A DNA stretch of 64,000 nt, from NCBI GenBank assembly GCA_040954595.2, contig CM082580.2:9588390-9652389 (forward strand), written 5' to 3'. The DNA comes from Balanoglossus misakiensis. Its lineage: Eukaryota; Animalia; Hemichordata. The notes below the pieces were generated by a model. That model was not told the DNA's origin and searched no databases. It saw only the letters and a list, made by a program, of their open reading frames with translations. Positions 23,101 to 60,540 of this stretch are shown here, in pieces (within the stretch, counting starts at the first letter, position 1; every line of letters starts with the position of its first letter). Both the position numbers and the translations under genes were made by a program.

Positions 23101-26100
23101 ATGTTTACAACTACCAGCAGTTTCTTGTTGTCCTCCCTAAAAAGATGCTGAAAAAGCCAGTTTGCTATTTATCAACAAAAGACAGCCTTCAGGTATTGTC
23201 TGTTGGCAACACATGTATGAAATTCGAGCCCTGACCTAGATTCATCTGCTCTGGCCTAAATTCACCACAATGATGGCTATATATACATATGCAGGCATGT
23301 TGACAAGCCAAGTGTTCGTTCGTGTTTGGACAGTATTTTAGTGACAGCAAACAGCTGTAAAGGACATAGAGAACAAACACGAAAAGTTGCACCTATTAAT
23401 ATCACTTTAACATTCAAAACACATGACCTGTAAGTAAATGGCTGTGGAAGGGATCCCCCTTTAGGCAGTGGATGACCAAAAAAGTATAATTGGTTTGTTG
23501 GTCAATCAATTTCTTGGTTCAAGTTGTGACCTGTACTCGTATGCTGAAAGCACATGTACATGTATATATGTGACTGACTTGGTCGGGGTTGGCATTGCCC
23601 AAGTGCACCACATACCTGCTTGAGAAGCGTCTGCTGCTGCATCTGCATGTACTTCTGCTGCTTCTCCTGCAGGAACTGCTGGTGTTGCTGCTGCAGTAGC
23701 ATCTGCTGCTGCTGCTGGAACTGCTGGATGTGCTGGCTGGTTGGCAGGGGAGCCGACTGCGTTCTCCCCAGCGGCCTGTGATGGGATCTGGAATGATTAG
23801 CCAATCCAGGGGGGAGAAGACAGACATGGTACTATTACTCCACATCGACGTGACACCACAAGGGGGTTGGGAAGGGGTGATGGGGAGGGGGCGGTAATGG
23901 CGGGACTGGGGAAGGGGGAGGGGGTTGGCTGGTGGGATGGGCAGTTTTACTGTATATGGTAACCACAGGTAATGAACGCAGAACTATTCAAACTATAACG
24001 AGAAATTTTAGCACAGTGAAAGCAAACTGCAAAAGTAGAGCGCTAAACAATGCTGATATCTGTCCTAAACACAGCGATATACCAAACAACAAGTCATTAC
24101 TGATGACACAGTCCCTTCTTGTCATATGAGCGACAGACAGAACCCAACCATTCTGGTTCTCATATAACAGGGACTAACATTGCAACAACTGCCACTCGGA
24201 CTTGCAAACTACACTATAAACTACGATTTTTCAACAGTCACTATATATTGAACTAAATACGACAAAATGTGCAGTTTTTTTAAAACAGTTACTATATTTA
24301 GACACAGGAGAAACATTGCCGGGTTTTCTATTGAATAAACGGTGACAGACACGCAACATGTTGACGTTACACAGCTGGTCTGTGCAAGGACGTTTACCTG
24401 AACACTATTGGCGGGGGAATTTCACTTGGAGTGAACCACGATTTACCACACACAAAAAGAAAGAGTGCAGTTTTACACTGGTACTACAGTAAGATATACT
24501 ATGGCTGAGGTGTGCCGAGAGGGGGTTGGGGGTGGTGGGGGGAATCGGAGATACTATAGTTGCACATCAAACTATGACGCGTGCGTGTCTGTAGCGATCA
24601 CCATTTTTTTTGTCTACACAATCTGTTGTACTGTAGCTATTTTAGACACTTGTGCAAGGATGTTGCCCTACATACAGGACAGTTTTTCACCACTTCTTCA
24701 CCATACCCATTGTTTACGCTGCTTTTGAAATACGTACTCCTATTTGCATCACATTTATCATTTCACAAACAATCGCACGGAAATAATGCTTCAAATTTTT
24801 AATTCATCTGAAAGAAGGATATGGGTATTTCTGAAAAAGGCATGGTGAAGTATTTTATGTGGCGAAAGTGAGCGTCTGATTTTTTGAAAGTTTGGGATCA
24901 TTATTCGATTTCTCAATTTTTTCCCCAGCAAAATCGGCCCGAAACGAAGCACCAGGGTTAAAGGCACTAAACATCCACATCCTTGCACTTCTAAAAGGCT
25001 TACTGTGGTTCCATTTGTTCTCCACAAATTCCCTGTCCGGTCGGGAAAGTGAAAAAGCTGGTATTGGATGAAAGTCTGATCAGCACACATCAAAGCATTT
25101 GGTATTCCAACATGATGTTGACAAACAGAAAGTCGATGGGGGAGTTTACTCTCTGATGTACTCGGACCATATATATATATTTATACATCACCAGACAGGC
25201 AAGTTTCTTTGGTAAAACACCGTTTACACCACACCGGTTAAATATGTATTATTACATATATAACACTGATGAAAAATACGTTCCGACCACAACGACATGA
25301 AAAAATTCCCAGCTCGGCAGGATATGGAAGTGTTTTCATGTTTGTGTGATCTTACCGTATTAGTCTAGCATGGGCTACTAACCCACTGCTCAGAGGGCTG
25401 GTGGTACTGGTGTCAGCTGTAACTGGGATGCCTTGTATTGCGTGTGGATGGACGGCAGTTGCAAGACCACCTGGAAATTAAAAGGGGAAACAATTTAAAG
25501 CGTGGACTTGGGACGTGCGAGTTTAAAAACAATTTTGACCAACAAATGGGTGTGCCACTCAAATATGGCTACCTCTTTTTAAAACGATTAGACTAATAAA
25601 TGGGTGTGTCACTCAAATATGGCTACCTCTTTTTTAAATGATTTGACTATAAATGGGTGTGTCACCCAAATATGGCTGCCTCTCAGTACACATGATGTGA
25701 TACTCACTTGCTATCAGTGGATTGAGGGGTCCTGGGGCCATGCCAGCCTGTTCTAAAGCTTTCATCTGGGCTTGTACGTAGGCAGGATTGGTTGGTGGAA
25801 AGGAATTGTTCAGGTCAGCACCACCACCTGAAAGAGTGCAATGAATAAACAGGTAATTATAAAAGCGATAAAGTAGGGATATAACAATAACAAATTGTGA
25901 CCCCCTTCCCTCATCTAATCCAATGGGAATCACCAGTCTACTCAATACCATGTTCACACTGGTTAAAACTGGAAATGTTTTAGCGACACTATTTGTAAAC
26001 ACGTTGGGTTAATCCTTTGAGTCGCTTTGTGTCCTCACACACAAGTGTTAAAGCCTAACCATGGCAACCGATCCCATAGACAGAGTGTTGAGGATAGGTG

Positions 26101-29100
26101 CTAATCCTTTACACTGGCTCAGGTCTGGCCTACTTAAACAGTTCACATGTAATATTAGTATTTTGAGCTGAGATGTTTCAGAAATGTTTCAGTGGTCCCT
26201 GTGTGACGTGACACGCCACGCCATATATAATGGGCAGCTTAAAACTGTGAGGATGATGCAAGAGTTGTAAGCTACATACCCTGCGGTAACGTCACAAAAT
26301 AGGGAGGAGGAAACAGGTGGCCCGCCGCAAAGTGGTGCCCAATTCTTGATTTCAACAAAGCCTCAGTCGTTGTCTGTGCTGCTGTCATTGTACTTGAACC
26401 CTGAAAGTAGATCAAGAGGAGTACATGAAATGATGCAGTCACAGTCTCCGTTCCTAGAGCTGACAAAAAAATTCTGGTACCAAGTGAGGTACCAGACTTC
26501 AAACTTCACGTTCATAACACTCAGGACTCTTGGAATTGTCTTATTTCACTTTTTCCAGATGACAAAATCCATATCTTACGATACGATTTTTGGGCAAAAA
26601 AAAAAAAAAAACACTTCAACCCCACACACAGGTGTTTTCCCATAAATTCAAGGAAATGACCAGTTTTTGGCAATTATCTTTAACGTGTGCATTCATTTTT
26701 CGAAATACATGCAGTAACATGTTGGGTTCTTTCTCTGTTTAGCAGAAGGCCCTGACCCCTGGACCATGGCAATTTGGTGGCCATAAATATACACTGTTAG
26801 GAAATGCTTCTCTTGACCTATTTTAAAGTGTTAATTGCTTTTCTCACCTACATGCACATTAGTGGCCCGAAATAGAACATGTAACAGATACTTTTCTTAC
26901 TGGTACAGGAGTAATTTATAACCCTCCCCTTATCAAGGCCACAACGAATACCCTAGCTGTCTCATTTTATAGTACATTGTTTCCATTGTGTGTTTTTAAT
27001 CTGCACAAAATGTCTTTCCAGGAAAGACGCCAGGTGCCCATGTGGTCCCTCCCGACTCCGACTGTTTATAAAATATAGATGAATACCTGGTAATTTTAAA
27101 TTAATATTTGCTGGTTGTAGGAGTATTTGATCAGGTCACTAGACCTGGATGTTTAAAGGGGCATATGCAATGCCCAGCCAGACAACCTTTTGTTTCCCAA
27201 TAAACAGTTCCCTGTATGGACGAAATGGCTATTGTTTATATCCTCTATAGTATAAATACTTTATATATATCATTAACACCAAGGTAATAATAACATGTCT
27301 ACATTTAATATACAAGTTATACAAAATCTACAGTCCACCTTGACTCTAAAATACATAGTTTTGATAATTTTCAAGTAAATTTAGGTTTAACATGTGGAAT
27401 ATTCCGGAGGCTGGCTATAACTAGGGTACCGGAAATGCTATCATTAGATGGTTAGCCTCAGGTTTTCTCATGCTATAGATAGATCGCAGCATGGATGGGC
27501 TTACGCACATGTGCCTGTGTGCCCTTGAGACAAAAGTCAGTGATGGTACTGCATTCATTGGGTTACAAAGATCAGGGGTTCTGAAGTTATTAATAGAACT
27601 GTAAAACCTATATACCCCTAGAGGGGTAGTAGAGGTAGATGACAAGGGTCTGAGAATATGCTATTAGTGGCTGCTGCGGGACTTTGTGAATTTATGAACG
27701 TTTTGCATGACTTGTGATGCACAATTTGAACAGCATGAGCACACTTTGAAACAGTTACATCAAAACAATATTATACATTTTGGAGAGCTTTTCATTTTGA
27801 ATATGTTAATTAAATAGTTCTTTTTATATTGTTGCTAACTAAATACTATTATTCACACAAAAATAATATACAGAAACTTCACAAGACTTACTGGCTGTGG
27901 GGCAGGTGTTGATGTCGCCGATGCTGGTAATCCCAATGATATGTTAGGCAGTGAGGGAGATGTATACAAATTCACATCGTTGGTTCCCAGCATCCGTTTC
28001 ATCATGAGTGGGTATCCACCGACTTCAGCCTAGACGAGTGCAAACACATACAGGTAACAGTATTATTGCCAATGCTATGCTTTGAAAGCAAACAAAAGTT
28101 CGAATACATGTTTGACGACTGGAGATACCCCCCACATCTCAGGTACACGCTATTTATCGTGAATAATTATTACATTCAAGAAATGAAGCGATTGCTAGTT
28201 CAGGGAGACTGCATGCTTTGAGAAGCCCTCAGCCCAAGCTCGGAGGCCCACTGGTTTAATCAGCTGGGTATCCACCCTGTTAGAGCAGAAGAAGCTTCTG
28301 TCTGTAGAGTACTTATAGATGGATGAATATATAATAGAAATTGTATTTACCTCAGCCCCTAGGACTGAAGTGCCTCCGTTGCCGAAATCCGTAGCTGGAA
28401 TACCTCCACTCTGCGGGGAGCTGGGCCCTGAACCAGGTGCACTGTTACATAACGTTGTATCAACTGCAAAATATCAACCAGTCAAACGCCAGTTTATACC
28501 ACAGGCATCAAGAGATATCAGTATCAACAATATGTCATTTGGATACTGTTTGAAACTTAATATGCTACAAAATAATACAACATTTCATACATTTACTGGT
28601 GTGGTGTATAAGTAAAACTAGGGCATAATACCTTCATCAATATGATGGAAAAAATATTTCTCAACTCATCTCACAGTTTTTTACTGTGTACACACAATAC
28701 CTTTGTTAGAGGTTTATAACCCACTGAGGAGACACCAGGCAACCAAGGCAGTAATTTCAGACGTCTTAAATTGTGACATTTTCAGTCACTTGTATAATCA
28801 TCCACCTTTCGTAACTGATGTTGATTTGAATAATTATATAAAGCACATAGTGCTTACATAAAGTGATATGACATATATATGTTCCTGTGGGTATGCATAC
28901 ACACAGTCACACAAATAAAGGGTTTCTTTGTCAAGCTGGTTTGGGAAGATTGCTTGTGGAAGAGTTTCTTAACTAACTTCAAGGATGCAATAACGATCAA
29001 CTCTCTCACATATGAAACCATGTCACATCCACCCAGATGGACAATAATCTTTTTTTTTTGGACAATTTGTTTATAAATGGTGTCGAAAATGTGCATATTC

Positions 29101-32100
29101 TGCACAAGAACTTGGCAAATGGATACTGATATTCTAAAATATATTGTCGACTCAATTCATCTAAATCATGTCAATATTAATTTGTACAATAACCGTCTGA
29201 CTAAAGGGTTTCAATGCAGTCTCCTTAACTTACTGCATGAAACACTTTGTATGTTTAATAGTATTCTTTTTAATTCACTGGTATTTTTGTAACAAGAGTC
29301 AGTGTTCCTACCAGCACATTTGCCTAGGATGTCCACTTTCAAAAGCTATATTTCAATTGGGATCAACATGGCAGTGTACAATTTATTACCCAAGCAGGAT
29401 ACACACCGCCTCAAAGCTATTTTTATCCACTTTTCATTTTTGTAATCAATAAAATCTATGAGCCCGGAAGTACGCTAAAGATTTGGGCAAAAATACACCA
29501 GACTTTGTGAACCTTGATGAAAAACAGTATTTATCATACCGGAAAGAACACATCATTTTAAGGTTGCATGAACCTTGCATTGCGAAGTGTTCTTTTTTCT
29601 TGATATTCCTCCTCTGGTTATATGATACAGCCAGGTGCTGGATATGAACCAAGCATATGATCTCTTCACCACAAAATTATGTATGATAATAATATGAATA
29701 AACAGGCAACCGTTCATTCAATGTAGTCAGACATGCAGTAGAATTTTTTAACCACTTAAAAATAAAAGTGAGTTGCCCATGCAAAGAGGATTTCAATGCT
29801 GTGTACGTGTGTGTCCCCAAGGAAACTCACTTGATAGAGGTTTGCGCTTAAGGCTGCTGGATCCATCCCTTCTTCGCAGCAGTGGGCTACTCCTGCGTTC
29901 TGTGACTTTCTCTTTCAACCGGGAACGCACCTTCAAGTTGGAGTCAGAGGCTACAAGGCAAGAGAGTAATATACAGAGAGTTCAGAAAAGAAGCCAAAAT
30001 AATACCAGAACCAAATGGCAAACAGAGGCGAGAGAAAAAAAAGAAAGATTAGAATTACAGAAGATCATTCACGGTGAAATGAATGGATCACGTATACACA
30101 CATGCAAGCGGTTGTCGGCCAAGAGGAGGATCATTCAAAGACATGCCATCCAGAGTTCACGGGAAAATCATTTCACAGCCATAAAACATGCGCTCAATGC
30201 ACGTGCCATGCTCGCATACATGCGGGATGCAACTGACAAACCATTCGGTGGATAGTTCGTGCTGGTGAATTGACAGTGGTCTGGCTGAAGGCGGGCGGGT
30301 AGATTGGTTGGTTGATGGGTGGGGAGGGGGAGGATTAATTTGCTAGCTATACCACACGTATCGTCAAAGACATTTCGGCAACACTGGAGGTAAAACAGGG
30401 TAGGGGGAATGTTCAATTGTATCACGGGGCATGGCAGTGTCTAAACACGGAGAAGCTCGACTGTGATCGATGGATGGGAGTACAATACACCTGACAGGTT
30501 AAATGAACAGCTATACAGATATAATTAGAAACGTAACATGTGTTACTCAGGTACGCACACAGGGGTCATTTCAAAGTCATACAGTGACAGAGATGGAACA
30601 CACGCAACAAACGCACATCATCTCCCCCGTTCTCAAAATTGCAATTAATTGATCATATTTGAACGGAACTAAATAGCTCGGCCACCTGTGGAAATTGCTC
30701 TCCACACGGACTAATTGGGATGCAGTCAATCATGCAATTGAATATCATGTAGGCATTGTTATTGACGGCTCATCCATATCGTATCACTCATTGGGACGTA
30801 TCCTGCCGACACAAAGCCTCATTGTTGGGAGTCCCACAACAAATCAAGAGTGATGAAGAAAATTTCCAATATCCATTCATCATCATCAAATTTTGCAATT
30901 CTTTATTCCGGGCCTTACATTGCTCGGGTCTTATCAAACTGTCACTTAAACTAGTTATACATGATTAAAATTAGATGAAGTAAGTGTTTGTTTTAAGCAA
31001 TTCTAAGCATACACTCTTTACCTAAAACATACACACAACACACAGGAATGCACACACCAAGTTTATTTCCAAAATCCTTGCTTTGATCAGGTATGTAACA
31101 GTAAGACAATACACTGACCATCGCAACAAATAACACAGACTCTATCTCCTTCAGGAGATGATGGGTATTGATCACAGTAAAGAATTCACGTCACGTACAG
31201 CTCCCAACAAACACAGTCATGGTGAGTCCACCCCTTTCAGGTTTGGAACTGGTGTACACCAAACTGGCGATTTTTGTCACTGAAAAATGCCTTATGTTTT
31301 TCATTTCAAAATCGTCATGTACTATGCAATAATGCAGATATGTTATATGGAGAGTAAATGTACATGTATGTACACACAAAAACACCTGTTGACATCTTAC
31401 CTGTTTTTCTTAACGGAAACGCATGATCATACTGACCGAGTACTGGATGCTGATATGGGGGCGAGACACCACTATGTGGAGGGGAATGATGCTCCAATGA
31501 ACTGTGGTGGGTCCTGTAAGTATTAACGATATATGAACACTTCAGCTTACAACATACCAGTGCAACAACAGATATAAAATTTTGTCTGAAAGAACTGTCC
31601 AGATCTCAACCACCAATTTTTTCTCTCTCACGAGATTTAATCACAATTCTGTAAAGGCAAACACAAACAAAACTTCCCCCTTACCATTGCCTGAAATGGT
31701 GTGGCGGGGAATGGTTTAAACTATTAGCGGCAGCCTCGCGGTGTTTTTTGTTGAGTACAAACTCTTGCAACCTCTGCTTCACCTCACTCGAGGCATTTGC
31801 ACCTGCAAAGGCAAAAGAAAGTGGTCACCACGTTTAAAATTCTGAAACAGTTAACCATACTACTGAATCAATGCACTCTAACTCATACTAGAATAGACAA
31901 TTTAAATTTTGTCAGTTACAAACTTGTGAATGTTGCTTGTAATGTTAAATTACGTATGATGTCATACCAACAAAAGACCAGGATGTGAGGTCACCTCTTG
32001 TTCATGAAAGTGGCTTTTCAAATACAGCAGCTCGCAAAAAAAAAAACTTACTGCCATGTCCCTCTGGTTTCTCCTTCTTCTTCAACAAAAGTTCCTGCCT

Positions 32101-35100
32101 CTGCCTTTCTTGTTCTCGTCGCTGTTGCTCTTGAAGCCTCGCCTGTTGCTCCAAGAGTTCTTTCTCTTTCTGCAGCTGTAGTATCCTTTGAGTCTAGTCA
32201 AGCAATTGTACACATAGTCAAGCAAAACCATAAAAAACGGCAGACACATTTCTTCGTGCCGATATCAAACAATTTTGTTCCACTTTGTACCTAAAATCAT
32301 CATTTTCAGCAGAGCCGTTTTTTATTTTTTTAAGTGATCTAAATACAAGGTTCGGTTATGGACATTTGATTAAATAACTGCATCTTTCTGATCAGATTTT
32401 CTTACTTGATAAGGAGAGGAGTTTGACACGGCATATTGTGTCCAATCAAACAGCACTCAGAAAATCATTTTGCTTGAGTATTAAGTGTCAAGTTTTCTAG
32501 AAGTGTCTGATCGTTTGAAAGGAAAAGGTAAATGACCAGTAAGTGCAGAGTGATCCAGATTTTTCAGGGTTCAACACAGACAAGCTTTGCTTTAAAGGTA
32601 AATATATTTGTGGTATGATCACCGAGTGTGTAAATTTAGCCACAGTAACCATGGGAAGTTGAGAATCATTGGATTTTCAGAAACAACTATGCCATGTCTG
32701 CATTGTATGCCATCTTGGTTTTGAAAGGAAATTTCATATATTCAAACAACACACCCAGAGTGAAGTGAGCTTTGTAAAGAGGGATATGGCATCAATGCCA
32801 ATGCGAAGACAGGAGCTCGAACAACCGGAAGAAAACTACTAGATATAATGTACATTGACATCAGTGAGTTTGATTTCACTGCGAGATATCAAGTCCCATC
32901 CACAGAAACAATAAATTACCACTAACAACAGTTTACACTATTAACAAACACAAGACAAGCACTACATCTTATAGACAACAAGAATCACACATAAATGTGG
33001 TGTACATGTACCGTGTTGACAGACACAGGGTTTGCACTGCCCACGTCACTCCAGTTCTAGGAATTTTGCAGTGTGTTTTCCAAGTACTTGAGGTCAAATA
33101 TGTGATCATGCAGGATTTCAGGATTTGATTAAAAATACTGAACAATTAACAATTTCATTTTTACAGGGCTTCCAAGGAGTGGTTAAATTTTGGAGGAATA
33201 TTGTTTTTTCCAGGAGCGCACCAAACCTGCTGCGAGTGAGCAACAATACATCAACACACACAACAGATAAAACACATTTTCCCCCCGATTTGATAATTTC
33301 TGTACTTACTGTAAAGTTACTGACCTGTAAGTGGTCATGTAGCTGTTTCTCGTGTTGTTTGGCCAGCTCCTCTTGCTGCTGTTTGAACTGTTCAATAAGC
33401 ATCTGCTTCTGCAGCTGCTGTTGCTGCTTGAGTCGCATCAGATCCTCGTGTAGTTGCTGTGACTGCATGTTGAGTTCGTTCGAATCCAACACAATATCTC
33501 TGTGGACTAGTTCTGGAGACTGCATGTGAGAAGAACCATTGCTCTCTGCAACAAGCAAAATCAAGTACATGTATTCTATTATTTAGAGAAGCAGTACGAC
33601 CCCAGTTGACATACAAAAATTGTTGAAAAACACAACAACAACTATCCAACTGTCCAACAAACAGTTTTACTTCCCAATCCATGTTCAGGTCTCATACATG
33701 TCATTCAAAATTTTCCAGCAGCTTTGTAACGGCTTTGAATTCAGTAATTTTCAGCAAAATATCAAACTATTCATTTTATCAGACCAATCGTCACATCAAT
33801 AGTGGATCACTCACACACAAGTCTCATCGCTACAGACAGAGGAAATAATATTTTGTACCATACTGCATACACATCCATCAAAATCCATTTTCATAAATGT
33901 GTGCCCCATATAACAGTGTTCTCGGTCCAAGTCTGATAGATTTTTCTTTAATGATTGAACAGTTGTGACTCTTGGCTATTAACAGTATTTCTATGTGTCA
34001 AATGTAGTTTGACTTCCCTGTTAGGATGATGAAATAGCTGATGTATAAATTTAGTAACATAAGCCATATGTGACAAATCAGCAATGATATTGCTGAGAAC
34101 TGACTTAAGTCACAAAGATCCAGTTGTATACAATGGGTAGTACTTGTACACATATACTGCCTTCAATTGGAGTAGAACAACAAATTGTAGTTTTTACTCA
34201 GAACACGAGGACTTCACAACTAAGCCACAAGTTACGGTAATGCCTCAGCACGATTATCAAGCTGTAACAGCTACATTCAAGGTATTCCTCAACATTTGTG
34301 TCTTGCATATCTGAGTAATAACAGCCTTAAGCCTTTTAAATCCCCGCAAACTCTGCTCACCGGGAACAATAAAGAAACGTCAGAGTGAACCAGTTGGTCA
34401 ACATAAAATCCACATGCTTTCACAAAGTTCTTACATGTACGTGTGTTTTTTTTCTGATAGACATAAAAATGGACGGCTGGATATTTTTTTTATAGAAATA
34501 AAAAGACTTATTGCCAGTTCATGCTTTTAAGAGATGTCAGGGACAGCTATAAATCATGACAGTCAAAACCTACACAATTTTAACTAAAATGGAAAGGGGG
34601 TGTCTCTCCATGGGGTGAACTTGCCCTACATGTAGGTCTCAATCAGACAGAAGGCCATTACAAGCGTAACCACCAATAAAATGCTCGCGAGCGAATGGTT
34701 CAGTTGCAATGAAAGATATTTTTAGAAGATGCGAATGGCGTTTACGACTGCCAACAGCAGGCATGAAAATACTGAAAGCAATGCATGCTAAAAATGTACA
34801 CTACTGCAACACCGTAAAAACAATATGTTTTCTATTTGTGCTAAACAACAACCTTCCTTTAGAAATCATGAGTAGAGTAAATATATGTATATTTAATCAT
34901 GCGACTTCCAGTATCAAGCTGTATTCGTGGCCTGGTTCCCCCCCCCCCCTCCCCATCTAGATGAAACACTGCAAACAGCTAAAAAAAATTGAGATTTGGT
35001 ACCCAAGTGACAAATGAAAATCAAAAATGAATATTGTAAGCAGAGCTAACGCTTATGGCCTCCATCTAACATTCACTGGATTTTTTTGTTCATCTCGTCT

Positions 35101-38100
35101 CTGTTGTTGAAATGTTTAAGGATTTAGATTTGGGCAAGCTAAAGGTAAGCAAAATGTCAGCTGGCTTACCTTTGGGCTGCATGTGGTTTGAAAAGTGAGA
35201 GTTGACATCTAATTCCCTTCGCCCTCCCAAAGATGGTTCTACATTACAAACAAAAACAAAAATAAACAAAAAGATTGAAATTAACAGAACAATAAAACTG
35301 TCTTCCTAGCAATACCGCTTACCCTTTCAATCTATCTCATCCTTTGACTGTTATGCAAATCAATTTTATCATTTTATTATCCTAGTTGAAACTTGAACCA
35401 ATACATGTAATTTTCAGGAACATACGGATCAATTTTCATGTACAATGGAGTACATGTATACCACGCTGTATGTATTTCCCTCACAAGCAAATGACAAGGC
35501 ATAACACAAATTAAAGTATTCCATCAGTGTTCGGAAACAAAAATCTGCTTGGCAAAAGCACGATTTAGTCTCTTCTAGACTAGCACATATGTAACTGTGG
35601 CTGAAGTCCTACAGAGAGCTGATTAGCATTGCAACAATTTTTTTTTCTGAAGCTATGAATGAATTAATTTCTAATATAACCTATAACCTTTTAAAACCGT
35701 TCTTTCGGATGATTCAATTAAAATTTTAAAATTCTGAAAGTGGCCTTTTCTCTTCACTATTACTCAGTCAGAGTGGGATCCTCTTCAACAATTATACATA
35801 TGAATACATTTTCAAATGTTGCTGGCAGGTGACAATGACGTGTACTTTGGAATGTTATCTGTAGGGGTGCGTTCAGCTCAAATGGTTATACGGGTCAGTC
35901 AAACCCAAATCCGGAAGTGTGATACATTTCGCATGCTAAAAATAGAGGTGAGTAGCTTCTATGAAAGCTGGTGGTATTGTATAAAGCCAAAAATATCCAA
36001 GACAATAAACAAGACAAGACCATCACCTTTCTTGTGCATAGACTCGCACAAGTAATGATGATGATTTGCAAGTTCTCATGGGAACACAAAGGCATACGTG
36101 TACATGTATGTGTGCATGCGTGTATGCATATCTGTCAAGAGCTTTCTCAGAGATGTCTAAGAATCTCAAAATGTCATCTACTGAAAAAGACAGCCACCAA
36201 TGGTGACCTATCATAACCAATAAATTGTCTATCAAAAACATACGACACTCATTAACATGTAACCGTCAACTAATTGCTTCATGCCCAGTCAGAATGAAAA
36301 TTCATATTATTTGCATAGATGACCACCAATTATGTAACACAGAAATACACAACATACGCTCTTACCAATATGCTACAACGGGAATTGATCAACTACATGT
36401 ACAGAAGTACATTGGGAGAAGAGACTCGCATGGACAAAAAGCAGATCATGAAAATCAAGTACCGGTACATGTACAGTTTACAGATTTCAGACAAAGTTAT
36501 CATCTTCGCGGCCAAAAAAAAAAATTAACTGCCCAGGATGGAGAAACAAAGTATCAGAGAACACATCATTACAACGTTATTTAGAAATCCAGCCATGTGC
36601 TACCCCCATACATAGACCGACTGATGTCAGAAAAAAAAGTTGTACATTACCAAATCTAATCTAATGTTGTTCAAGTACAGTCAGCTAGAGTTCCAGTAAG
36701 ACGGGCCTCTCCCATCTGTGCCGACCTCCCTTTTCCACAGACAGCATCCCTTCTCATGCTAATCCGCCAACATATGAGCTATATATATACACATCGATGT
36801 AACACAGTGCATGTACTGTGGGTGCATATAAATAGCCCAGGTACCCATGAAGCTTATTAATATTTAATAATTCATAGCGCTGACATTTGCTTCGGAGAAC
36901 GAGGCTCTTAGACGATTTCAAAACAGATGTCGGGAAGTCTCTCCCCGCCAGGATGTGTGTCTTAATGGGGGAAGTAATGCCATATCAATGATTAACTGTA
37001 TCTATTATTAGTATTGAATTCACTTATCTTTCCTAAAAATAGAAATTTTAAAATCCCCAGATCTCTGCATCTTTCACGTGAAACAGACCCGGGCATAATG
37101 ATGGCCAACAAGTGCATAGCAAGCTGTGACCGTGCCGACAGACCCTCAGAGATTTTGTTTTGATAAATGCCGATTACAGTTACACTGCACTAAAAAGAAC
37201 TAAAAATATCCCTGCATATGGTCTTTTTTCCTCAGTTTATCTTCTTAATGTTCTAATTTTGTAAGGCAGATGAGCAAATCACGGAGCTCACAAAAAAGGA
37301 ATTTGAAAGTATGTGACTTTGAGGCAAACAAGGTCACTCTCTTTCCAGCAGCAATTGAGGTGGAGTTTTTGCATATCAAAAAAAAAAAGACTTGAACAAA
37401 ATCACATTTGCAACAAACCACTTATTTCCATCATTCATTTTTCTAGGCAAGTTTAGAAGATGGTGCGTTTTTAAGCGCAATAGGAGTGGCACCCCCGATC
37501 CAGTTGTGATGCATCATGTGAGTGAAAGCAAAAAAAAAAGCCTGGGAAGACGATCCTTAGTGCAATACAGACCAGCTAAAATAAACTTCCTTGATATTTT
37601 TGACTGGTTATAATGAAATTACACATATATCTTGGGTGTCCAATTACCAAAATGCAATTGGGATGAGTATTAATGTACATGTATCGCAGCATAAGTAATA
37701 TCCCACAGAGATGAGCTCATGTCTATATTCGATACCATTTCTACCCCAAAATACAGGGTACCCTGCCAGGGCATAGCATTAATGGCTGTGTTTGAAGATC
37801 TATTTTGGGTTAACAGTTTCACATCCCTAAATGAGTGAGAATAAAATAGGGGAGAGGGGACAATGTGTTGTAAAGCTATTAGTGGTGCTGATGTTTTGGT
37901 CATGCCCAATCAGGATTGACGTACTTAATGGGCACAGGACACACAAACATATCTCCTACTAGTTTTAAATAGCATGCTAAAGTATCTCTCTCTCCCACCA
38001 TTTGATTGGTAGGCAATTTATAGCCACATGGTTCTGACAACGATACCGCGCTATCAGGCCGCAATAGGAAGGTTGTTTCTTTGATTCAAAGCATCCATAA

Positions 38101-41100
38101 CATTCAAGTTTCGTTGTTACAAAAGTTACTGAATTTCCACTAAAGAGAAGGAAGCCTCTTCAAATGGTTTGTGGCAGCCGCTCAAAGTCAAACAGCACCG
38201 ATTTTAATACATGGCCTGCACATTGGCTCCAATGGTCATACAGTGTAGACTTGGGAGGGAATGGACCGGATAGAAGTTGATATTTAAACCGTTGCATCCA
38301 ATCCTTGCTGAGAGGCACTCAGAATAGGTCAATTGAGATGATTTGCTTCCGACAATGTCAAGTGCCGATGCATGTTCCGACAATGTTGAGTGCCTATGTA
38401 TGATTTTATGGCCGGACACGATACTTAGAAGCACTGTCATGCAGCTATCACGAGATGCATGTAACATTATTTTAATACACGCAGTGATGTTGATTATGTT
38501 TTGTAACAGCCACTCAAGGCACAACAAATTTGCTCATTAAAATGTGTTTCTACATGAGGTTTTAAAATGTTATAGCTGGTCGGTCAAGTTCAGTCCGGCG
38601 ATTTGACCAGTGACCGGCTGAACATGTAGATACTGTGTGTGTGTGTGTGCGTTGGGGGGGGGGGGGTGTTTTATACAGCAATATGGAGTTTGCAATGAAA
38701 GACCACTTTTACCTTGCTTCTTGCCTGCTCCTAACTCACAGGGCAAATTACTTTCTTTTTCACGAAGTGCTTCCATTTCCACCTGCGGATGACCGTGTGC
38801 AGTTTGAGCAATGCTGCCATCCGCTCCCTGGTTCTTGCAATTTTCCTTAAAAAACGACCACATCACTTCCTCGGGGATATCTGGCAGCATTTTCCGCAGT
38901 TCCGTCTTGCCGACGCCCACTCTCCTGCTCTCCGGCGACAGTGCGAAACTGCACGCCTCCACGTACAGATGTCTCCGCAGAGCCCGCCGGTAGTACTGGG
39001 GGAAAGTGGCCTGCAGGATGTCCAGGGTCAGCAACTTCCCTTCGCGTAATTTCTGCCGAATCCATTCGGCCACGATGTCCTCCGCGTCGTGCGCGTCCTG
39101 TCGCGAACCCAGCCCCAGCGGCTCGACGCCGACCATCTTGGCGATGCGGTCAATCTGGCCGGCGCTGAGCTCGGGCAAGACCCGCACGGCTCGCTCAACG
39201 CCCTCCTTGGTGCCATTCTTGATCGTGTACTTCTTGGCCGCGCTGTAAACAACGTATCGCATGTCCGCGATACACTCCTGACCTCTGGAATGGAGCAGCT
39301 CCGCCAAAGTGATGGGAGTTCCCTGCTCCAGGGCTTCCAGCAGGGATTCCGTGATGACCCGTTCCACTTCTTCCCCGGAATACTGGACCTCGTCGGCGGC
39401 GCGGGTACGGGCGTCCCGAGGATCAGATCCATTTTCGTTCCAGGGGTTCCTCTCTGGCATTCTGACCACTTCCATCTTGAGCTCAAACGATTCCTCGCCC
39501 GACAGTCAGTCCGTCCTGTAGAAGACCACGGCGATCGACCAGTACACACTGGTGGCATTCATTCATGGAGTCTCTGGTTACAGAGAGACTGAAATAGGCT
39601 TCGCGGTCTGGTCAGAGGTGAACATGAACTCATTCCAGTGCTACATGTACAACCAGCTCTGAAACCGTGTGATCAGACGTTCGAAAACAGCGCGGTGGTG
39701 ATTTCTACCTGAATTACCCCTGCCACTGTTTTACAAGTGTCTCAGTGTGTGTGTGTCCTTACAAGGTATGACCTCCCTTCTTGAGGGCCTACTTGCCCAA
39801 AATAAACACAGAGGGTGTCGGTTTCATGGGCGGATCCAAGAATACCACTTGGACATTGGTAAAGAAATCCAGACCTTGTATTATGCCTGGAATTCCCTGG
39901 TTCTCACAATCACACTGGAAGCACAGGCCGCCGCAGTCAACTGCTCACAGCAAAGCGCAGATTAGCACTGCTTGGTGTCAGCTACGAAAAAGGGGCAATG
40001 AGTCACTCTGGGGGCTCGCTCCTTTATTCCCCGTGACAATGTCAATAACCTCCAAGAGAGAAGTACACAGCTAAAAATAGCCAGTGATAAAAATCACACA
40101 TACATCTCTGTAGGGGATATAATTAAGTATGTCAGTCATGTGCAAGCCCAACCTCCCCTAAGGCCAAATCAGTAAATTCTTGTGTATACCAATCTCTTTG
40201 TTGGAGGTTATTATCGGCTGATCATCAAACCAGGGATAGCCTTGACCATTATTGATAGAGTGTCTCCCGGTAGCACGTATAAATGTCAGTTCTTTTTGAT
40301 CGGATGACGCACATTCGTGTTTGTCTCCCCGTGCTATCCGACCAGAACACTATATTTCTTCTGGATAGACCGCGGGAGTTGAAGGCAACAATACCCATTC
40401 AAGTCAGTCAAAAACCTTGGTAAACCCCCAATCTGACAAATAGGCCTTTTCAGTAAATTACGCGTTAAACTGTGGTGCTGCACTGTGCAGATAATGGGAG
40501 CCTGCTACGCGCCATGCAGCGACAGAAGCAATTTCACAGGCGCAGCCAAAGATTTCTACCCCATCCATATTTTTGAAGGCTTTCCAACCGGTGCTAAGGT
40601 TAGCAATTAAGCCATGTGTAAATGTAGAATTATTACAAAAATATGGTTAAAATGGGACTTTATAGAGGTACATGTGGTATATATGTAAATGTTCATCAGT
40701 ACCAGCAAACACCAAGCTCAGGGGAGGGTCGCTGTTGGATAATCCTGCTTCTGTTTAGATTCTGTATCTTCATCAAGACATTACTGATTTTTAATTCACA
40801 CAACCTAGCAGATACAGTATTTTTTTAAATATGCATGTACCATGCTTTAAACTCAATCAGACAGGGGTTCATGTGGCAAAAAAGGTTGTTCACCAATTCT
40901 TGTGCCACAGACAATGCAATGTACAATACATGTATGCAGAAGTAACATGCTTTCCAATCTGCCCCAGGACGAACAATGGTACATGTATACATTTTGGATT
41001 ATGGGCCCTGGGCACAAAATAAGAAGTATGTTCAGTTCACCCTGTCAAGCCTAAAATATCACTGACACAATGCGCTTATTGAATTTCTCTCCTAAATATA

Positions 41101-47980: not shown

Positions 47981-50900
47981 ACTGTATGTCTAACAGACAA
48001 TGATACATCTGGCAAATGATAGTCAGAAAATGATCGTAGATAATGGAAAATTTTAATTTTCTGCTGTCCGTCTTCCTGTGTCCTTCACCGCCACAAGAAA
48101 GGTTTCAACATGTCTATTTTCTACCCCAGGTCGCATTCCAAACTTTGTTATCATTGTTGGTTCTCAACAAAAGCCGCCAGAGTTTGACGTCATCCGGTAA
48201 TGCTATCTAGCTACCTGTCACTGTGATCTATGCAACCCCTGGTCTTATTTTTAGTGCTCCCATTCACACACTAAGATAACACAATATACCGTGCATGTAG
48301 TTCTCCTGGTAAGCACCCTTGCTTGGCCTGGTGCCATGCATGATTGTCCCGTCATCCTCCAAGTCATAAAAAGTTCCAATTTTATGGTCAAAGCACATAT
48401 GTAGAAATATAAATCAGAGAAAAGCCATGCAGATCTGCAACTTCATAAATCACATCATGGTCTACACCTCTTGCATATAAATGTCATATGTATTTCACCT
48501 TCAGAACAGCAGGCAGACAGATATTTCATCTGTGAGTGTGTAAAACCAGAAGCACAAAAGTAGACTTAGTTCATTTTTAGTAGTTAATTTGAATATTGCC
48601 ATAAACAGCAAAGTTATCAGCACATACACAGCAATACGTTGTTCTGATACATTTACATATTAGCGTTAAAAGTTGCGACAGATGCATATATATTATTAAC
48701 TCATAAAATTTGTCCTTGAGCTCATTTGAAGTGAAAAAAGTCACAACGTGTCCGTGCACACGTATAATGGATCTAAATAAAGACAAAATGGCCTACGAAG
48801 CAGTGGCCATATTGGATCTTGCCGGGGACAATAAACATGCACAGACAGACATGAGTACAACACAGCCTGTTCTATGTGAATACAGGAGCTAAAACTATCG
48901 ACATATGCATGCAGTCTGTGTATTGTATCTTGGAAAAATTTTCAAAGAGATGGTGATGCTTTGGGAGAAGGAACAAAGAGTGCAATGCAATAAAAAATTT
49001 CCCGTCCTTCATGCAGTGTGTACCCTGGTTTTGTATAACCTGCCAAAAATGGACCACTCAATAAAAAAAAACATGTAACATCCCAGGGAGACAAAAATAA
49101 CTTTGTGTAAATTTAATGGTCAATTTTCTTTCCAGGAAGCAATATGTGTATGTTATTTTAAACCATGACTAATACTTTTGCAGCATTTAGCTGCTCACGT
49201 GTACATGTACATGTAGACTTCCCACGCATGCCATTAGCAGGCCCAACTACTGCATCTGTTTACTCTATCTGGGGTAAATTGAGTACGTCTATATACCTGC
49301 TCAATTTCATATGCATGCCAGTTAAAACCATGATAATTCATTATTTTTATTGGAACAAAACGTGCTGTGTGTACTAGATGACAAGCTTTTTACCAAGAAA
49401 TATTGTGGCCTAGTGGTCAGGGTACCGGACTCACAATCAGAGGGTCCTGGGTTCAATTCCCGGACATGGCCTTCGTGGATTTTCTCTCGGAGGATAGAAA
49501 TTCGCTTAGGTGATTCGCACCTGTTCCAGTCATTCTGTCATATGTGGATGTTTATTTTGTACTTTCTGTGTTTTAGTTGAATAAAAAAAAAATACATGGA
49601 GAAAGTGTGGCTGGACCTCACTAAGGTTTACTTTTACCGCATACGCAATGAAAGTAAACCTTGATGATGTCCAGCCACACTTTCTCCATGTATTTTTTTT
49701 TAGCAGAGGCCTGCCTAAACCAGGCACTGAAAGGACAACCGCACACTCTACACTCCACATACATGTATATGTAGTATGAACTATGATGTTTTTTTGAAAT
49801 TTGGGCATTTTCCAGGGGACTTCAAGTTGAACCCATCCATCTGTAGCATCACTGCTACTGTCAGGCCTCAAGTACAGCACACCAGAAAGCAAATTCTGCT
49901 CGTCCATCTAACCTCATGATTGGATTGAACACACTCAATCACTGTGAAAAATGAGCATTTTAATGCTTTCTGCCAAAACTTTTAAGTGATGAATGTATCC
50001 GGCCGCCCAAAGTTCTCCCCAAAAATGCCTCCAATAGTTCCATGTCTGCAAAAGGGTGCAAAACAACAACAACAGACTAGACGGGTTCAGACGAACATCT
50101 CCAACTTGGAATATTTTGCATTCCTGATGTGTGTTTATTTCATAATAAAAACGAAATGGACATCAGCTGAGTGCTTTTTAACAAGGTTGCAAGTGGAACA
50201 AACGGAGGTACATGTATCTGTCATAGCCGGTTCCTGTACTTGGAATGTTGATGTTCAAACAGAATCAAAGACTTGATTCCAACTTTATAACGGAATACTG
50301 AACCATAAAAATTCAATCTCCATTTTCCCACTAGAGATCTGGATTTGGGAAGACTCACTACATGAACATGTGTATGTATGTGAGGAGGAGATGCCTGGTT
50401 CTAGACACTAAGACAGATATACCCCAGCTGACATACTCAATCTTGACGTCCCATCCAAACTTAGTCGAACAGAAGGAGCAAATCCTACCATACGTAGCTT
50501 TCTACTCTTGGGGGGGGGGAGAGACTCCACAGACATGCACCAGCATATACACAGCCCAGTGTCAGACATGCACACGTACCATATGGAACCAAGTCTCGAA
50601 CGAGCAGCAGTCCACACCCAGCATAGAGCACATGCACAGCTTAAAATAGGCCAATTGATGTATGAAAGCAAATGGAATGGCGACATGAGAATGTTGAAAT
50701 GCCTCAAAATACACAGATATCTAGCACACATTTTTTAAAGGGTCGTGGTACACTATACATAAAACGTACAGGCAAGCTGCGCATCCACTGAATTCACCTT
50801 CCCCTTTTCTAGTCTATATATAGATGACACAGTGTATTACATCACGTAGCACTGCTACAAGAGAACATATACCATATGATCAATATACAGTAATTGTGAG

Positions 50901-53900
50901 CACAAAGCACTAAAAGAGTTTAGAGAAAATGTTATTTCATTTCATATACATGTACATGTACACATGTATTATACTTTTAAAAAAGTGCATTGTACAATCA
51001 TGTACAAACGCATTTTAACACGTACATGTACTATACACCCTACATCATAGAAGTACAATCATAGACACGCAAGAAAGTACAATCATGTATGTATACATTT
51101 ACGACTTACAAAATTATTATTTACGTCGTTGCATGAACAGTATCAGTAATAAGTTGTTGATAGCAAAGGAAAATGTTGCATCTTAAAAAGGACAAATGAT
51201 GTCATTTAGCACAACAAGCAGTATACACACATGTACATGTATACACCACACTGACGCACACGTGCTCGCGCACGTACACACACACAAACTTCTCTGCACT
51301 TCTGGTTACACCAGTGGATACATTCAACTACGACAGCTTCACACGCACACACATGCACATCACCAGCAGTGGTGCCTAGCATCCCAGTTAATACGCCCTC
51401 TGAGGAGATTTATGTCTTTAACATTAAAATGTCAGGGGGTCAAAATGTTCAGCATATCTGGGTGCATTTAAAGTCTGAAAGCAATAAGACCCCGCTGTGT
51501 TAGTTTCAGAGAAATATGCAACCCACGTAACACAACTAGCAAAGGGTCAAAGTACAAATATGCGTTTGAGCTGACCTGGCTTGTATTAAATATAGTTTTC
51601 CTGATAAATAATCCCTGTACACACTGACTACAGTCTTTATAGGTACTATTTGTTGAAAAACGTGCTAGTATTCTCAACAGTGGGGGCACAACTTCTCATT
51701 CCAGTGTTTCACAAACAAGTCATCACGGATGACATCACGGCAGAGAATTTGTAACCGCATGCGTTGTACAACAGTGAAAATACCTCAGAGTGTTCTGGCT
51801 TTTGACCAATGTTAAATGGAAATAATTTCAGGCATGGTTGAGAAACGATACGGCAGACACCAACGCAGAGAACTTCTTGTATTGTACAACATTGTTGTTA
51901 GGCACCTGTGACTGTGCTGAGAATTATTCGAGAGCAAAAGTGACATGTACATATATGTGTAGAGGTACATGGAGTACAGAGCATTGAGGCAGGGATCTAG
52001 TGAATCACATAATTTATTTTCTTTCGCAGGGTGGCCACAAGATAAAAAGTGCACCACGAAATGTTCATCATTGAATGATTAAGAAACACCCTTTTGACCA
52101 TACATGTGTATGTATGTCTATGTAAATTAAGAGTGATTGTACACCTTTAATACGGTATGACACAACATGAGTTTGATCGTCACAGTATAAATGTACATGT
52201 AAGAGTAGCTTGAAGACCACTTATCCCAGTCTGGTGCTGTCATACGTATATTAACAGCTACTGCCAAACAAAATAAAGCAACAATATTTTGATAATTTAG
52301 TGAGTGATAATATCAAAAAATTTCAGTTAGCAAGCAGGGCTACTTGGCAACGCAGGATACCTGATAGTTGGGTGACTACTACATGTACAGTATACCGGTA
52401 CAAACACTGATCATATTCGCATTGACTGACTTAAAACAGGCATACAGTGTATTGTTGTCTATACTCACCGGACCTGAATGTACTGGTACGCTGATTATAC
52501 CAGCACTGTTGAGTGTGGCATATCTGCCTCTCTTGGAAACTCTCCATGCCTGAGCCTTTAAAACCAGAGAACTGCTATTTCAGTTTGCTAGGCAGGAATG
52601 AAAGAAACTAAGATCTTCCAAGCTCACGGGCAGCGTTACTGCTTTGCGAGTTGTTGTCGGTCGGTCATTCACCTGGAGAAGCCCCCTAAATCATGCGAGC
52701 AGACAATACAAACAGACGTCTCAACGCCTAATGTGTACTTGTTGTAAAATGCAATACTACAATCACCGCGGTGGAAGTAAACAGGGTTGTGAAAGCAGCA
52801 CTCAACAGCCACCCCCCATTTGCGTCACGAGCGCGCTGTTCTATTTACTACGAACACTCCACCGGACTCAATGTCACCCCTGCCCACTGCGACAATAACA
52901 ATGGTTCCTACGTGCACGTTGTTGAGAGAGCCAGAGAGCCGTCACCCTCCATCTCTAGGGCTCTCAGTCATGTTCTGGCGATAAACAAACGCACTGCCCA
53001 CCGGGCACAGAGACAATTGCATGGCTCAATCTATCAACATCACATGAATCTGTTGTTCAACGAAAAACAACTGCTGAGCGGCTCTCTTTATCATGGTCTA
53101 CGAGGCCGTGCTTCATGTTCGCTTTGCCTAGTTAGATTTTGTATATACATTTAGATTCGTATACATTTTGAGTAACAGTATAGAATATATTCATGCAAGT
53201 TGTCGCTGTCATAGGCTCTGAAACTAAATGAATCAAGGAAAAAAGCCAGAAACATCATTTTGGCAAAGTGTGTCGCACGTACATGTACCATCAATATTCA
53301 GTGATTTGCACAATGTTTCATCTCAACAGGGGGATGGGGGGGATTCATCCTCCACACTGATATGTTGGCACCCTCTAGCAATTTGTAACAGCAAGATGAT
53401 TCTGCTCCAAACCCTCTCTTTCTCTGAGGCATATGTGTATGATTGATGAATACCTGTATACTGTACATGCTTCCCCGTTTGTGTTTTGAATCCACCTACA
53501 GCCTCATCTTCCGTCATCTACCAGCTCAGAGGGATTGCAATCACTGTCCTAGAATTCACTCATATGTAACTATGTCAGACATGTTTAGAATGCGAAGGGT
53601 GGCATGTACGTTTGTACGTGAACTGACAGTACCAATATTCTACATGTATGGTCCGTGAAGAGTGTGGTACAGGTCAACATAGCCGATGAACTAGCATATC
53701 AGAACCACAATGACTGGACCATTTAGTCAATAAAACGAGTGATTCAAAACATATCACACATAGATGTGCATGATGTGAAAGTGATTGGTGGTACCTGAGA
53801 TCACAAATACACTGTACATACTGTCATGTGAAAATTTCAGGTGCAAATGTACTTAGCACAGTTAAAAACACAGCAGCATTTTCAAGAAAGGAAAATCAGT

Positions 53901-56900
53901 AGACTTTACAAATACAATACATCGTCCATCATACATGTACATGTACTGTATGTATATACACACAATACACGATCTGCCCGGTTAATTCAAACCCAGCCAA
54001 AAGTCATTGGGAACGTACATGTGCACGGGGGTCACTGACCTGGCAAGCTTAATCGATTGTAATTTGTAATGCAGGAGGGCTGCTTACATTTACATTGGTA
54101 ATACCCATTATTCTAAAAAACAATTGCTCTTTGCGGGTACATGTACATTTATACAGAAACACCATGGCCCAGTCACAACAGAACTGACAGCCATTTGTCC
54201 GTGACTAGTAAACAGATGCAAAGCTGAGACTCACTAATCCACTTCTTAATACACACCACCCAGGTACATGTGCATTCCTCCGTTCCAACTCTCACCTCTG
54301 ACCGCCATCTACATGTATAGGCACCACACCAAACACTACATCATCATGAAATTGATCCACTTTGCCATTTAACACCAAGATACATTGTATTGACACCTGG
54401 ATTCACGACTGAGAACTGTGAAAACTGAGCAAACCTGTTCTAAAAAAATCAGGGCTGGTACATGCATACCAACAAGGTCTTTGTAAATGAAGACCAGTCC
54501 CAAAATTTGAGACCAGGCCGAGAAAGGAATTTTAAGCATTTTGAAAGCGGTCTCCCAAAAACTCCCTGCATGTATTTTGAGCGCCAATGTCAACAACTCC
54601 CATGATAATATCCACAGAAACAAGCTGTCAAAAAAACCCAACAATAATCACCACCATATCACATGATGGAACAAAGCTGTAAACAGCAATGATGAGGAAA
54701 GAGTCCTAATAAATCACATGGGTTTATGGAGTCGCCAGGACTGCAAGAATGTACGGCACATAACATTTTACACCATGCATACATTTATATTAAAAGCTGG
54801 CTATCACATCACAGCTACATGTAGTCTTTCACTGGGTTTTAATGTTTGATGCCCAAGTATTTCAGGGGATGCACATTTCTGCGTTATTATTTCTGCGTTA
54901 TCGCTTTTGTCACGACCCCAAACATTTTTCTAAAACACGTCGTTTCTCATTAAGATTTTCTAACTTCATGCACATGTACAAGTATTAGACATTATAACAC
55001 AGATGAAGCCACTGCTTGCCTTGCATTAGATTGTAGTACATTTGTAGTTGTATACACGTATGCGTCAATTTCATATGCTAATTTAATTTGAATAGGTCAT
55101 TAACTTACACATCATGTTAATAAGGTGAGGGCTCAGTCTGAAATGGTCTCAAAGGGGTGTCTTTTTTCCAAATTATAATGATAGAGGGAGCTCTTCCATA
55201 CTCCCCATGTCACGGGACAGGAAGTTTCATGACATAGCATACATGTACTGCACATACATAGTACATTGTAGTAAAGCACTGCTGTGAGGCCCGCCTGACA
55301 AGCAGGTTTCATTCATAAAAATGTCCTGTACTCCTGTTTGCTACAGTTTACCAACTTTCCTTCAATCATTCACAGCTCTAATATCTGTACTTGTTAATGT
55401 GTCAAATTATATAGCTTACAGAAGAAAAATATAAAACCATGGTAACAAGAGGTCTGCACATTTACAGGAAGAGCCAAAGGTGACACTTCCTGGGCACCTT
55501 TGAACCAGATTTCCTGTTAAAAATGCGGCCATCTCTCTTATCTGGTGAATGTACCATACATGTAGATAGCAAAAATAAAACAAATGTCTATGACAGAGAG
55601 TGTGTCACTCAACATTGACAAACACTTGACGTGCACATGTTTGTCTCAATACATTCTCCTTATACCGTGTCACAATCGTGACACCTGAAGAGAAAATCTC
55701 AAAACAAAACAGCTGTCAGGCAGCCATCCTCGTGTCAGGTTCACATAAACCATGTCAGATATATTTCAGTTATGAAATGATCGTAACAAAATGTTAGCCA
55801 TAATTGTTAACACTGTGACACAAATTGATGTTCATACACTTTATGTCATGGTCAATATATACCATTTGTTATATTTAAAATAAAACTTATTTCAGTTTTA
55901 GAAACATGGTCAAGCAATGTCAGTGAATAGGCTAGCCATATTTGAATATGAATAAATAAGACCAGGTATGTATGATTGTTGATCATGGCTCTCGACATGA
56001 AAATATTACCCAAAAATGGCTGCCGTGTGGCTGTCTTGGATCACATCACAAAACAGAACTGGTGTGCACATACATGTACCAAGTACGAGTGGATTCAAGA
56101 GAGCACCCGGCTGCCATGGCGACGTACAATCAAGTCTGACTGATGCTTAAACAACCATCACGATTCTCTTAAGTCACCTGAACTTAATTTGATGGTACAT
56201 TGAAAGGTAGGAAAGGAATCTGACACACGATCCACAGAAGTCATTAATAAATGGGAAATTGCTGTTCACTTATTAGGAGTGTATGGTGCTCTGGCGTCTT
56301 TACATTGCATATCCAGCTGTGAAAATGGGTTTGCACATGGCAGTTTGCTATCTTATCACCACTTACCTGTCACGGATGATGACAGCAGAGTCCCCACACA
56401 AGTTTAACTGTGTGGGTGGACTGGACTTGATGTCTCGTTGGTCATATGCACCATCTCACAAAGTAATAAATGCAGTCACCATGTGTGTATATTACATGTA
56501 TGTACGTATATTCTAATGAATTTACAATGCCATGCCATTCTCAAATTCTAAAAAAATTCATCCCATAGCTATTATGATGGTACATGTTACACATGTAAGA
56601 TCAGAATACACTCTAGGTCACATTAGATGTGGTCAAATGCTATTGGTTTATTAGATGCAGGCACATGTAATATGTGGTTTGGGAAAGACAGAAACATCAC
56701 TACCATCCTTACTATGAAAATATCCATAGATCTGGAAGAACCCTGGTTACTCTGACTTGGGGAACCTCAGTAAAATTCACCCCCGGATAAAATATTGTAC
56801 AATAAATTCAACGCAACCAAACTGCACGTTTTTTTTACTAGATTTTACATTCGGTACCTGCTTCAAAAACATCTCTGCTGTTTCCCACAGTGCATTTTAT

Positions 56901-59146: not shown

Positions 59147-60361
59147 TGTATCTACTCCTCAGGGTCTCCAGACGAAAAAACTGTACCCCCCGCTCTCCTC
59201 AAATTGGAAAAAGATTTGCTCAGACAGATGACTATCCTCTTCAAACGTAAATGAAACACAAACTTGCTTATGCGTGCAGAATTCTGGGTACTGTTAGCGT
59301 TACACTATGAACCACTTGCATGAAAACTTTTGAATGGATCTAGAAACCAGAAAAGTAAACAATAACAAAACAATTAGCTGGAGGCTGGGGAAAAGCAAAA
59401 AAAAAAGCAAATTAAAATACTGGTACATATATTTCATAATATACCGGAAGCATATTCGGAGCCAAGTCGACTCCACACTTATTATTCACAGTGTGCATTG
59501 CCTTTATTATGAAAAGTAGCTCTGTGCTATTTTTATCCTCAATAAACAAACTGTCGACATTTTCGGTCGAGAAAATTTAGATACATACCGCTCGCTCTAG
59601 TTAGAATATTCGTTCAGCGCGGTGACATTAAAAATGTCTACCGTAAATATTTGATAAAAGAAACGCAGATAAATAAACAAACTTCGACTTAAAACAAATA
59701 ATAAAGCTGGTTTCCGACCCTAAACAGGAAGATTCACATTCACGGCTTCAGCTGAGGTGATTTTTCACACATTTTAAATTGACTATCGAGCTCATTCGAG
59801 TTGTATCCTGTCAGTGTATCGCATTTTATCTAATATTTGCGTTGGGAAGGCATAATATTCGTAGAGAAAACTAGGGTGTGGGCTTCATCGTACCCGCTTT
59901 TCAGAACGGATTGTTTCGGTTTTATATTATGGTGGACGTGGACAGCGGTTGTGATGACGCGCGTGTGCCGATATCCAGCTCGGCCGATGGTTACAACCCT
60001 GGTCGTTTACGTTCACACGCTGGGTTGCCGTACGTACGTGCCCAAACAAACTCGGAGTGGGCCTGGCCGTCGACTGGCCGAAAATTTGACCGCAATGGCA
60101 CTTGTGGAAAGCGAAAACAACATACCGAACAGCCAACCGATTCAATTACAAGATGGCTGCAGAAAGCAGCGATAAAATCTCAGCAACCAACCCTAGGCAA
60201 CGTGACGGAAAGTCCGTAGAATTTTTTCACCGTAAAAAACCACGGATACCTCGGGAGATATGAACCCAGCACAGCGGGCGTGTTTACCTCTGTTCCACGC
60301 TAATACCACTGTTGAAAAAATTAGGCGGCATTATCACTTCCTATATTAGTCATAGTCTTAC

Positions 60362-60540
60362 CTGATATGCTAAAGTCTTGGCTAAATTCCTCATAGGAGG
60401 CCACTAAAACGAGAAGTTTTCAGAGCCAACCGCCATGATGATAGCTAAAAATAAGCCCAGCTCGACAGAGCTTCGCCATTATGTTGTACCACGTGACAGC
60501 GAGGGCCAATGACGACCAAGAAGCTGTCTGCTATTTTTAG
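60362..60540 (-). promoter_or_regulatory. Probable HDAC promoter and non-coding first exon
   Basis: Strong CAG|GTAAG donor at 60362/60361. MEF2 sites CTAAAAATAA (60445-60454) and CTATTTTTAG (60531-60540), E-box CACGTG (60490-60495), CCAAT (60506-60510), YY1-like CGCCAT. CpG-rich stretch at about 59.9-60.3 kb. Confidence 0.6.

Follow-up and report, generated by a model that had tools for sequence, protein, structure and literature searches.

A conserved coding exon inside the first coding intron (23.9 kb) of a histone deacetylase (HDAC) gene of the acorn worm Balanoglossus misakiensis is likely one of three alternative 5' coding exons of that gene, and it is predicted to add to the enzyme two helical units that likely bind chromatin or protein partners. 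Its coding part lies at 38713–39475 on the minus strand of the window, i.e., the whole stretch of 64,000 nucleotides analyzed here, and isoforms of Ptychodera flava carry an orthologous leader. Since P. flava models combine this leader with the same junction, the resulting protein of about 1380 aa, a new N-terminal module on an HDAC as proposed from the DNA letters before, is probably real in B. misakiensis.

By its sequence, the host gene encodes a class IIa HDAC of an enteropneust (acorn worm). P. flava isoform X2 mapped by tblastn over 35239–17434 in 18 nearly ungapped segments, with 740 of 814 residues identical (91%). The first common exon is at 35170–35238 (minus strand), and the remaining ones at 17434–33545 (minus strand) encode a Gln-rich region, 14-3-3-type motifs, the deacetylase domain and the LEGGY tyrosine. 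In the P. flava HDAC (P0003), Hist_deacetyl (PF00850) was found at the C-terminus with E 1.6e-89, and the window exons and motifs match it; the Gln-rich domain (PF12203) scored above its cut-off (E 1.5e-10) in a region where the window exons are 92–96% identical. Two RxxSxP motifs of the P. flava HDAC (P0011), predicted 14-3-3-type sites, are both present in the window translations, and a stretch at its residues 417–425 resembles a MEF2-binding motif. The catalytic tyrosine in LEGGY is kept in the window and in the P. flava HDAC (P0011). The vertebrate-type Tyr-to-His replacement was found in neither, as expected for an invertebrate, since among class IIa HDACs this replacement is described as vertebrate-specific in the available part of PMC7288346. 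Elsewhere in the window, exons at 9189–9896 (minus strand) look like those of an ABCG/white-type transporter, recognized by motifs, and positions 1–5380 are an 87-bp tandem satellite of about 62 copies with 98% matches, in which the long open frames are repeat artefacts.

Three leaders, all in phase 1, can be read into the first common exon, and they are the counterparts of the three found in P. flava (59146–59128, 52547–52469 and 39475–38713). The short canonical one (59128–59146, minus strand) contributes 6 codons plus 1 nt. The second (52469–52547, minus strand), the counterpart of the 24-aa leader of P. flava, contributes 26 codons plus 1 nt; conserved between the two species, it was absent from the sequence-only reading. 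The leaders ending at 59128 and 52469 join exon 35238–35170 in frame, as the long one does. In addition, a possible non-coding exon ahead of the canonical leader is indicated by an acceptor at 59339 and a donor at 60362.

The long exon holds a frame of 763 nt (254 codons plus 1 nt) followed by a phase-1 donor after 38713. It opens with CAAG-ATG-G, a good context, with an in-frame TGA upstream at 39508–39506, and ends AAG/GTAAAA, in frame when joined to exon 35238–35170. Thus far the coordinates, start context, donor and junction of the sequence-only reading were all correct when the letters were read again, and so was its description of a GC-rich frame in an AT-rich intron (GC of 0.58 vs. 0.39). 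No frame without stops in the 23.9-kb intron is longer than the one that holds this ORF (311 codons); the runner-up has 180 codons. With a body of 1111–1124 residues, the predicted long form in this species is about 1365–1378 aa. The non-coding flank at 39476–39775 (minus strand) shows a third-position GC bias in the frame of the ORF (0.64 vs. 0.43), exceeding that of 59 out of 59 AT-richer intron tiles; noticed post hoc, it may be left over from a reading frame that was once longer.

Orthologues of the exon were found in two other acorn worms. A search of 6075 longer candidate proteins gave a single match, isoform X5 of the P. flava "histone deacetylase 4-like" protein (1372 aa; E 2e-66), with 60% identity across 84% of the query. 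The P. flava HDAC4-like cluster has 18 members, and in the 15 listed, the leader is of 261 aa in 7, 24 aa in 4 and 6 aa in 4; all leaders join the same common exon in the isoforms listed. Isoforms X2–X8 (XP_070566410.1–XP_070566416.1, 1338–1381 aa) are computed RefSeq XP_ models, and isoform models of this type are usually backed by RNA-seq junctions. Among 1718 candidates of near length, the sole match was the 214-aa product of LOC144433617 (XP_077978079.1) of Glandiceps talaboti, 50% identical over 82% with E 2e-52, annotated as a separate uncharacterized protein. Glandiceps, like Schizocardium, belongs to the Spengelidae, and Ptychodera to the Ptychoderidae. The split between P. flava and Schizocardium is placed at more than 370 million years ago in the available text of PMC11175523.

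Conservation among the three species is concentrated in a core of about 180 amino acids, residues 37–214, where identities in the three species pairs are 93/174, 115/176 and 109/174 (53–65%). Beyond the core, the tail is only 11–28% identical in the same comparison. This variable linker of about 40 residues (38714–38833, minus strand) is of similar length throughout: from N212 to the junction or stop there are 42, 41 and 40 residues. Such conservation of the core next to a tail free to vary is what a selected domain followed by a linker would show. No counterpart of the P. flava linker as a separate exon was found within the window. The module diverges much faster than the HDAC body, with 65% identity against 91%. 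Among the invariant positions are a MLPDIPEEV stretch and, on helix 3 in both units, basic residues (K81 and K82 in the first; R163, R167 and R168 in the second).

Relatives of the module outside acorn worms were found neither in the near-length, longer-protein and unit-2 profile searches nor by phmmer. The unit-2 profile added nothing to the P. flava and G. talaboti proteins already found, and phmmer against 1.84 billion representatives gave two matches, P0002 and P0018. The latter, a repeat protein with five short matching stretches and no alignable core, was dismissed as a chance match. HDAC-fused relatives can hide under cluster representatives lacking the module, so absence elsewhere is weak evidence. 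With three members known, all of them from acorn worms, the module stands as an unassigned family of small domains.

Splice sites were scored with small matrices built from this gene's 21 donors and 19 acceptors. The donor at 38713 scored 6.4, within the top 2% of 1703 intronic GTs. A competing phase-1 donor after 38740 (38731–38742, minus strand), 27 nt upstream, scored 8.5; joined to the exon at 35238 or 33545, it would lead to a stop after residue 245, while unspliced read-through of the long exon gives a 300-aa ORF. Together with the stand-alone annotation in G. talaboti, this stronger donor makes it conceivable that the product is free or decayed. The module might then be mainly a small nested gene or truncated product of 214–300 aa, with the HDAC fusion minor or limited to some species, a reading which is considered unlikely. 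The P. flava models show the fusion with the same junction, the linker length is conserved, and G-N-G-N, the last residues of the G. talaboti protein, would be expected from read-through of a phase-1 G/GTAAY donor. Splicing of the long exon onto the HDAC body in B. misakiensis is held to be very probable.

Upstream of the start codon, a 120-nt intron in the 5' UTR had been outlined in the sequence-only reading. Both of its sites are present as letters, and the donor at 39709 scored 4.2, but the acceptor at 39588 scored −3.4, which 55% of 1305 intronic AGs equal or better. This acceptor was rejected, since besides its low score, it would bring in three upstream ATGs, one of them opening an overlapping 176-codon frame. 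The best-scoring nearby acceptor would give an exon start at 39515 (39476–39535, minus strand), with a score of 9.1 (top 1% of intronic AGs); it would leave a 40-nt leader that omits the three upstream ATGs. Another acceptor at 40049 (minus strand) is very strong (12.1); it lies just downstream of a MEF2 site and may begin a non-coding exon. Given the good acceptors at 39515 and 40049, the long exon may be spliced from further upstream, and an upstream non-coding exon could equally feed it, as an alternative to an internal promoter.

The perfect MEF2 site reported earlier at 40071 (40071–40080) is indeed present, but it is not singular, being one of 13 strict matches to the consensus in the locus. 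CTA(A/T)4TAG occurs 13 times over 17.4–61 kb against 0.95 expected, and 11 permuted control motifs gave 1–7 matches. MEF2 drives HDAC9 in a feedback loop, according to the portions of PMC6954409 and PMC7912504 available. By analogy, the surplus of sites suggests a MEF2–HDAC feedback loop acting on the gene rather than a mark of the long exon. Three matches to a looser MEF2 consensus cluster at 60445–60827, near the main promoter. Two 26-nt stretches with a MEF2-like core, 40072–40097 and 56890–56915, are 85% alike and inverted with respect to each other, possibly a composite regulatory motif.

The fold of the leader was modeled from three sequences in all cases. AlphaFold2 predicted helices across residues 34–214 with disordered ends; mean pLDDT was 66 and pTM 0.49 for the full leader, and most ten-residue blocks in the helical region had a pLDDT of 70–90. 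The core is predicted to consist of two tandem five-helix units, all-helical and with no family or fold assigned: unit 1 at residues 37–118 (39122–39367, minus strand; 53–65% identity across the three species) and unit 2 at residues 129–214 (38834–39091, minus strand). Unit 2, which carries the invariant R163, R167 and R168, is predicted to fold alone, with a pLDDT of 84 and pTM of 0.73. The two halves align collinearly with about 20% identity, a score that column shuffling reached 4 times in 150 and 17 times in 609 (p about 0.03), so an internal duplication is suggestive, not proven.

Structure and sequence comparisons of these models gave no firm relative. A Foldseek search, which the sequence-only reading had proposed for the 254 residues, returned nothing at E ≤ 0.001 in PDB or BFVD. 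VIA-align against 48,161 chains gave no Z ≥ 8 with either the full model or unit 2, PDB sequence searches nothing below E 0.3, and the ESM Atlas no usable match (later scores ≤ 0.85). Unit 2 came closest to the ENT domain of EMSY (Z 5.9 and rmsd 2.9 over 76 residues), on a par with chains of TetR, cyclin and TFIIB. Since no fold match reaches Z 8, a targeting role for the module rests on anatomy and context: its place at the N-terminus, the basic residues that are invariant in helix 3, and weak neighbors among nuclear helical domains. Such a role on the HDAC is judged about even in probability.

The same basic residues also enter a different account, in which the module began as the DNA-binding part of a pogo/Tc5-type transposase and was then domesticated, or comes from some other mobile-element or viral gene, and gives the HDAC its own DNA targeting. 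This origin is improbable. Pfam HTH_Tnp_Tc5 matched residues 130–157 at E 0.035, the exon is intronless and rich in GC at third positions, and relatives were found in acorn worms only. The match of this Tc5/pogo (CENP-B-type) helix-turn-helix reached 14.5 bits against a cut-off of 22.2, covered 28 of 66 profile positions (3–30) and appeared in one of the three orthologues. The 64-kb window contains one copy of the module, and of its 115 inverted pairs the 25 longest include no terminal repeats that flank this copy. No viral or metagenomic relatives of the module were found in BFVD, IMG/VR, JGI metagenomes, PHROGs or phage records, where animal transposons are poorly covered. Separately, a hairpin at 49584–49701 has 51-nt arms, 94% complementary, and a 16-nt loop, and is possibly a small non-autonomous element.

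Composition had been the ground for supposing capture from a mobile element or virus. GC3 of the core is 0.78 versus 0.52 over 834 codons of the HDAC body (16 exon pieces, range 0.38–0.72), where two exons attain 0.64 and 0.72. CpG observed/expected is 0.99 in the long exon and 0.50 in the intron, and a value of about 1.0 is shared by the promoter region at 59–64 kb. Because the contrast in GC and CpG resembles the surroundings of the main promoter, composition is not proof of foreign origin, and the viral, phage, metagenome and repeat searches lent the supposed capture no support. The simplest origin is that a single small helical domain was duplicated internally before the two acorn-worm families split.

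Less probable still is a CUE-like nature of the final two helices in each unit, with ubiquitin binding that would link the HDAC to ubiquitylated chromatin or proteins. Pfam CUE was matched in two of the three orthologues (best E 0.0079), and the MLPDIPEEV stretch is invariant. Against this reading, the match reached 16.3 bits with a cut-off of 21.1 and covered only profile positions 7–28 of 42, and the region following it is unconserved and modeled with low confidence. A degenerate tandem cyclin/TFIIB/Rb-type fold serving as a protein-docking platform is very improbable: it would agree with two five-helix units of about 85 residues each and with the many cyclin and TFIIB chains at Z 4.5–5.3 to unit 2, but rmsd values are about 4–5 Å, the listed matches cover only unit 2 in the full model, and comparison with 82 haloarchaeal TFB sequences, a narrow family sample, aligned 7–18 columns at a probability ≤2%, whereas the repeat-to-repeat control within TFB gave 98%.

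Under the preferred reading, of a conserved alternative 5' exon, the choice among three phase-1 exons would yield HDACs with a common body and different N-termini. The long N-terminus would tether two small helical domains through a flexible linker of 40 residues, and the long isoform would keep the putative MEF2 region, the 14-3-3 and Gln-rich regions and the catalytic tyrosine. Because of these retained parts, it is predicted to be active as a deacetylase while carrying one further domain, for targeting, and the module may direct the HDAC to new chromatin partners. A bolder version, which is unlikely, is an active HDAC that targets itself: the tandem helical units, possibly domesticated from part of a transposase, would bind DNA or chromatin, and the donor at 38740 would switch between fused enzyme and free module. 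No description of the long isoform was found in the literature searched, which covers few subscription papers. The fused sequence is already known as RefSeq models in which the leader has no named domain.

Compared with known proteins, P. flava X2–X8 are the closest, with an orthologous 261-aa leader, the same junction and a similar length (1338–1381 vs. about 1365–1378 aa), but their start codon is about 11 residues further upstream and the linker is 18% identical. LOC144433617 of G. talaboti has the same core (53% identical) and is annotated apart from the HDAC. The best structural neighbor of unit 2 is the ENT domain at the N-terminus of EMSY (Z 5.9 and 5.7; 5.0 for a Trypanosoma brucei ENT), a small, homeodomain-like helical domain of a chromatin regulator (as given in the available part of PMC8394001), although identity is 10%, Z is within the background range and Pfam ENT was not among the matches listed. 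Vertebrate HDAC4/5/7/9 share the C-terminal deacetylase domain, the Gln-rich region, the 14-3-3-type sites and the abundance of isoforms, whereas they have His in place of the catalytic Tyr kept by the acorn-worm gene. In the available excerpts of PMC7288346, PMC13267311 and PMC7912504, the vertebrate class IIa N-terminus figures as an adapter that bears sites for binding and phosphorylation, with no mention of an extra folded module. The route to chromatin described for class IIa HDACs runs through partners like MEF2 and uses this adapter region; a conserved folded module, on an isoform with the tyrosine intact, would, if true, aim the enzyme in another manner, in a sister lineage of chordates.
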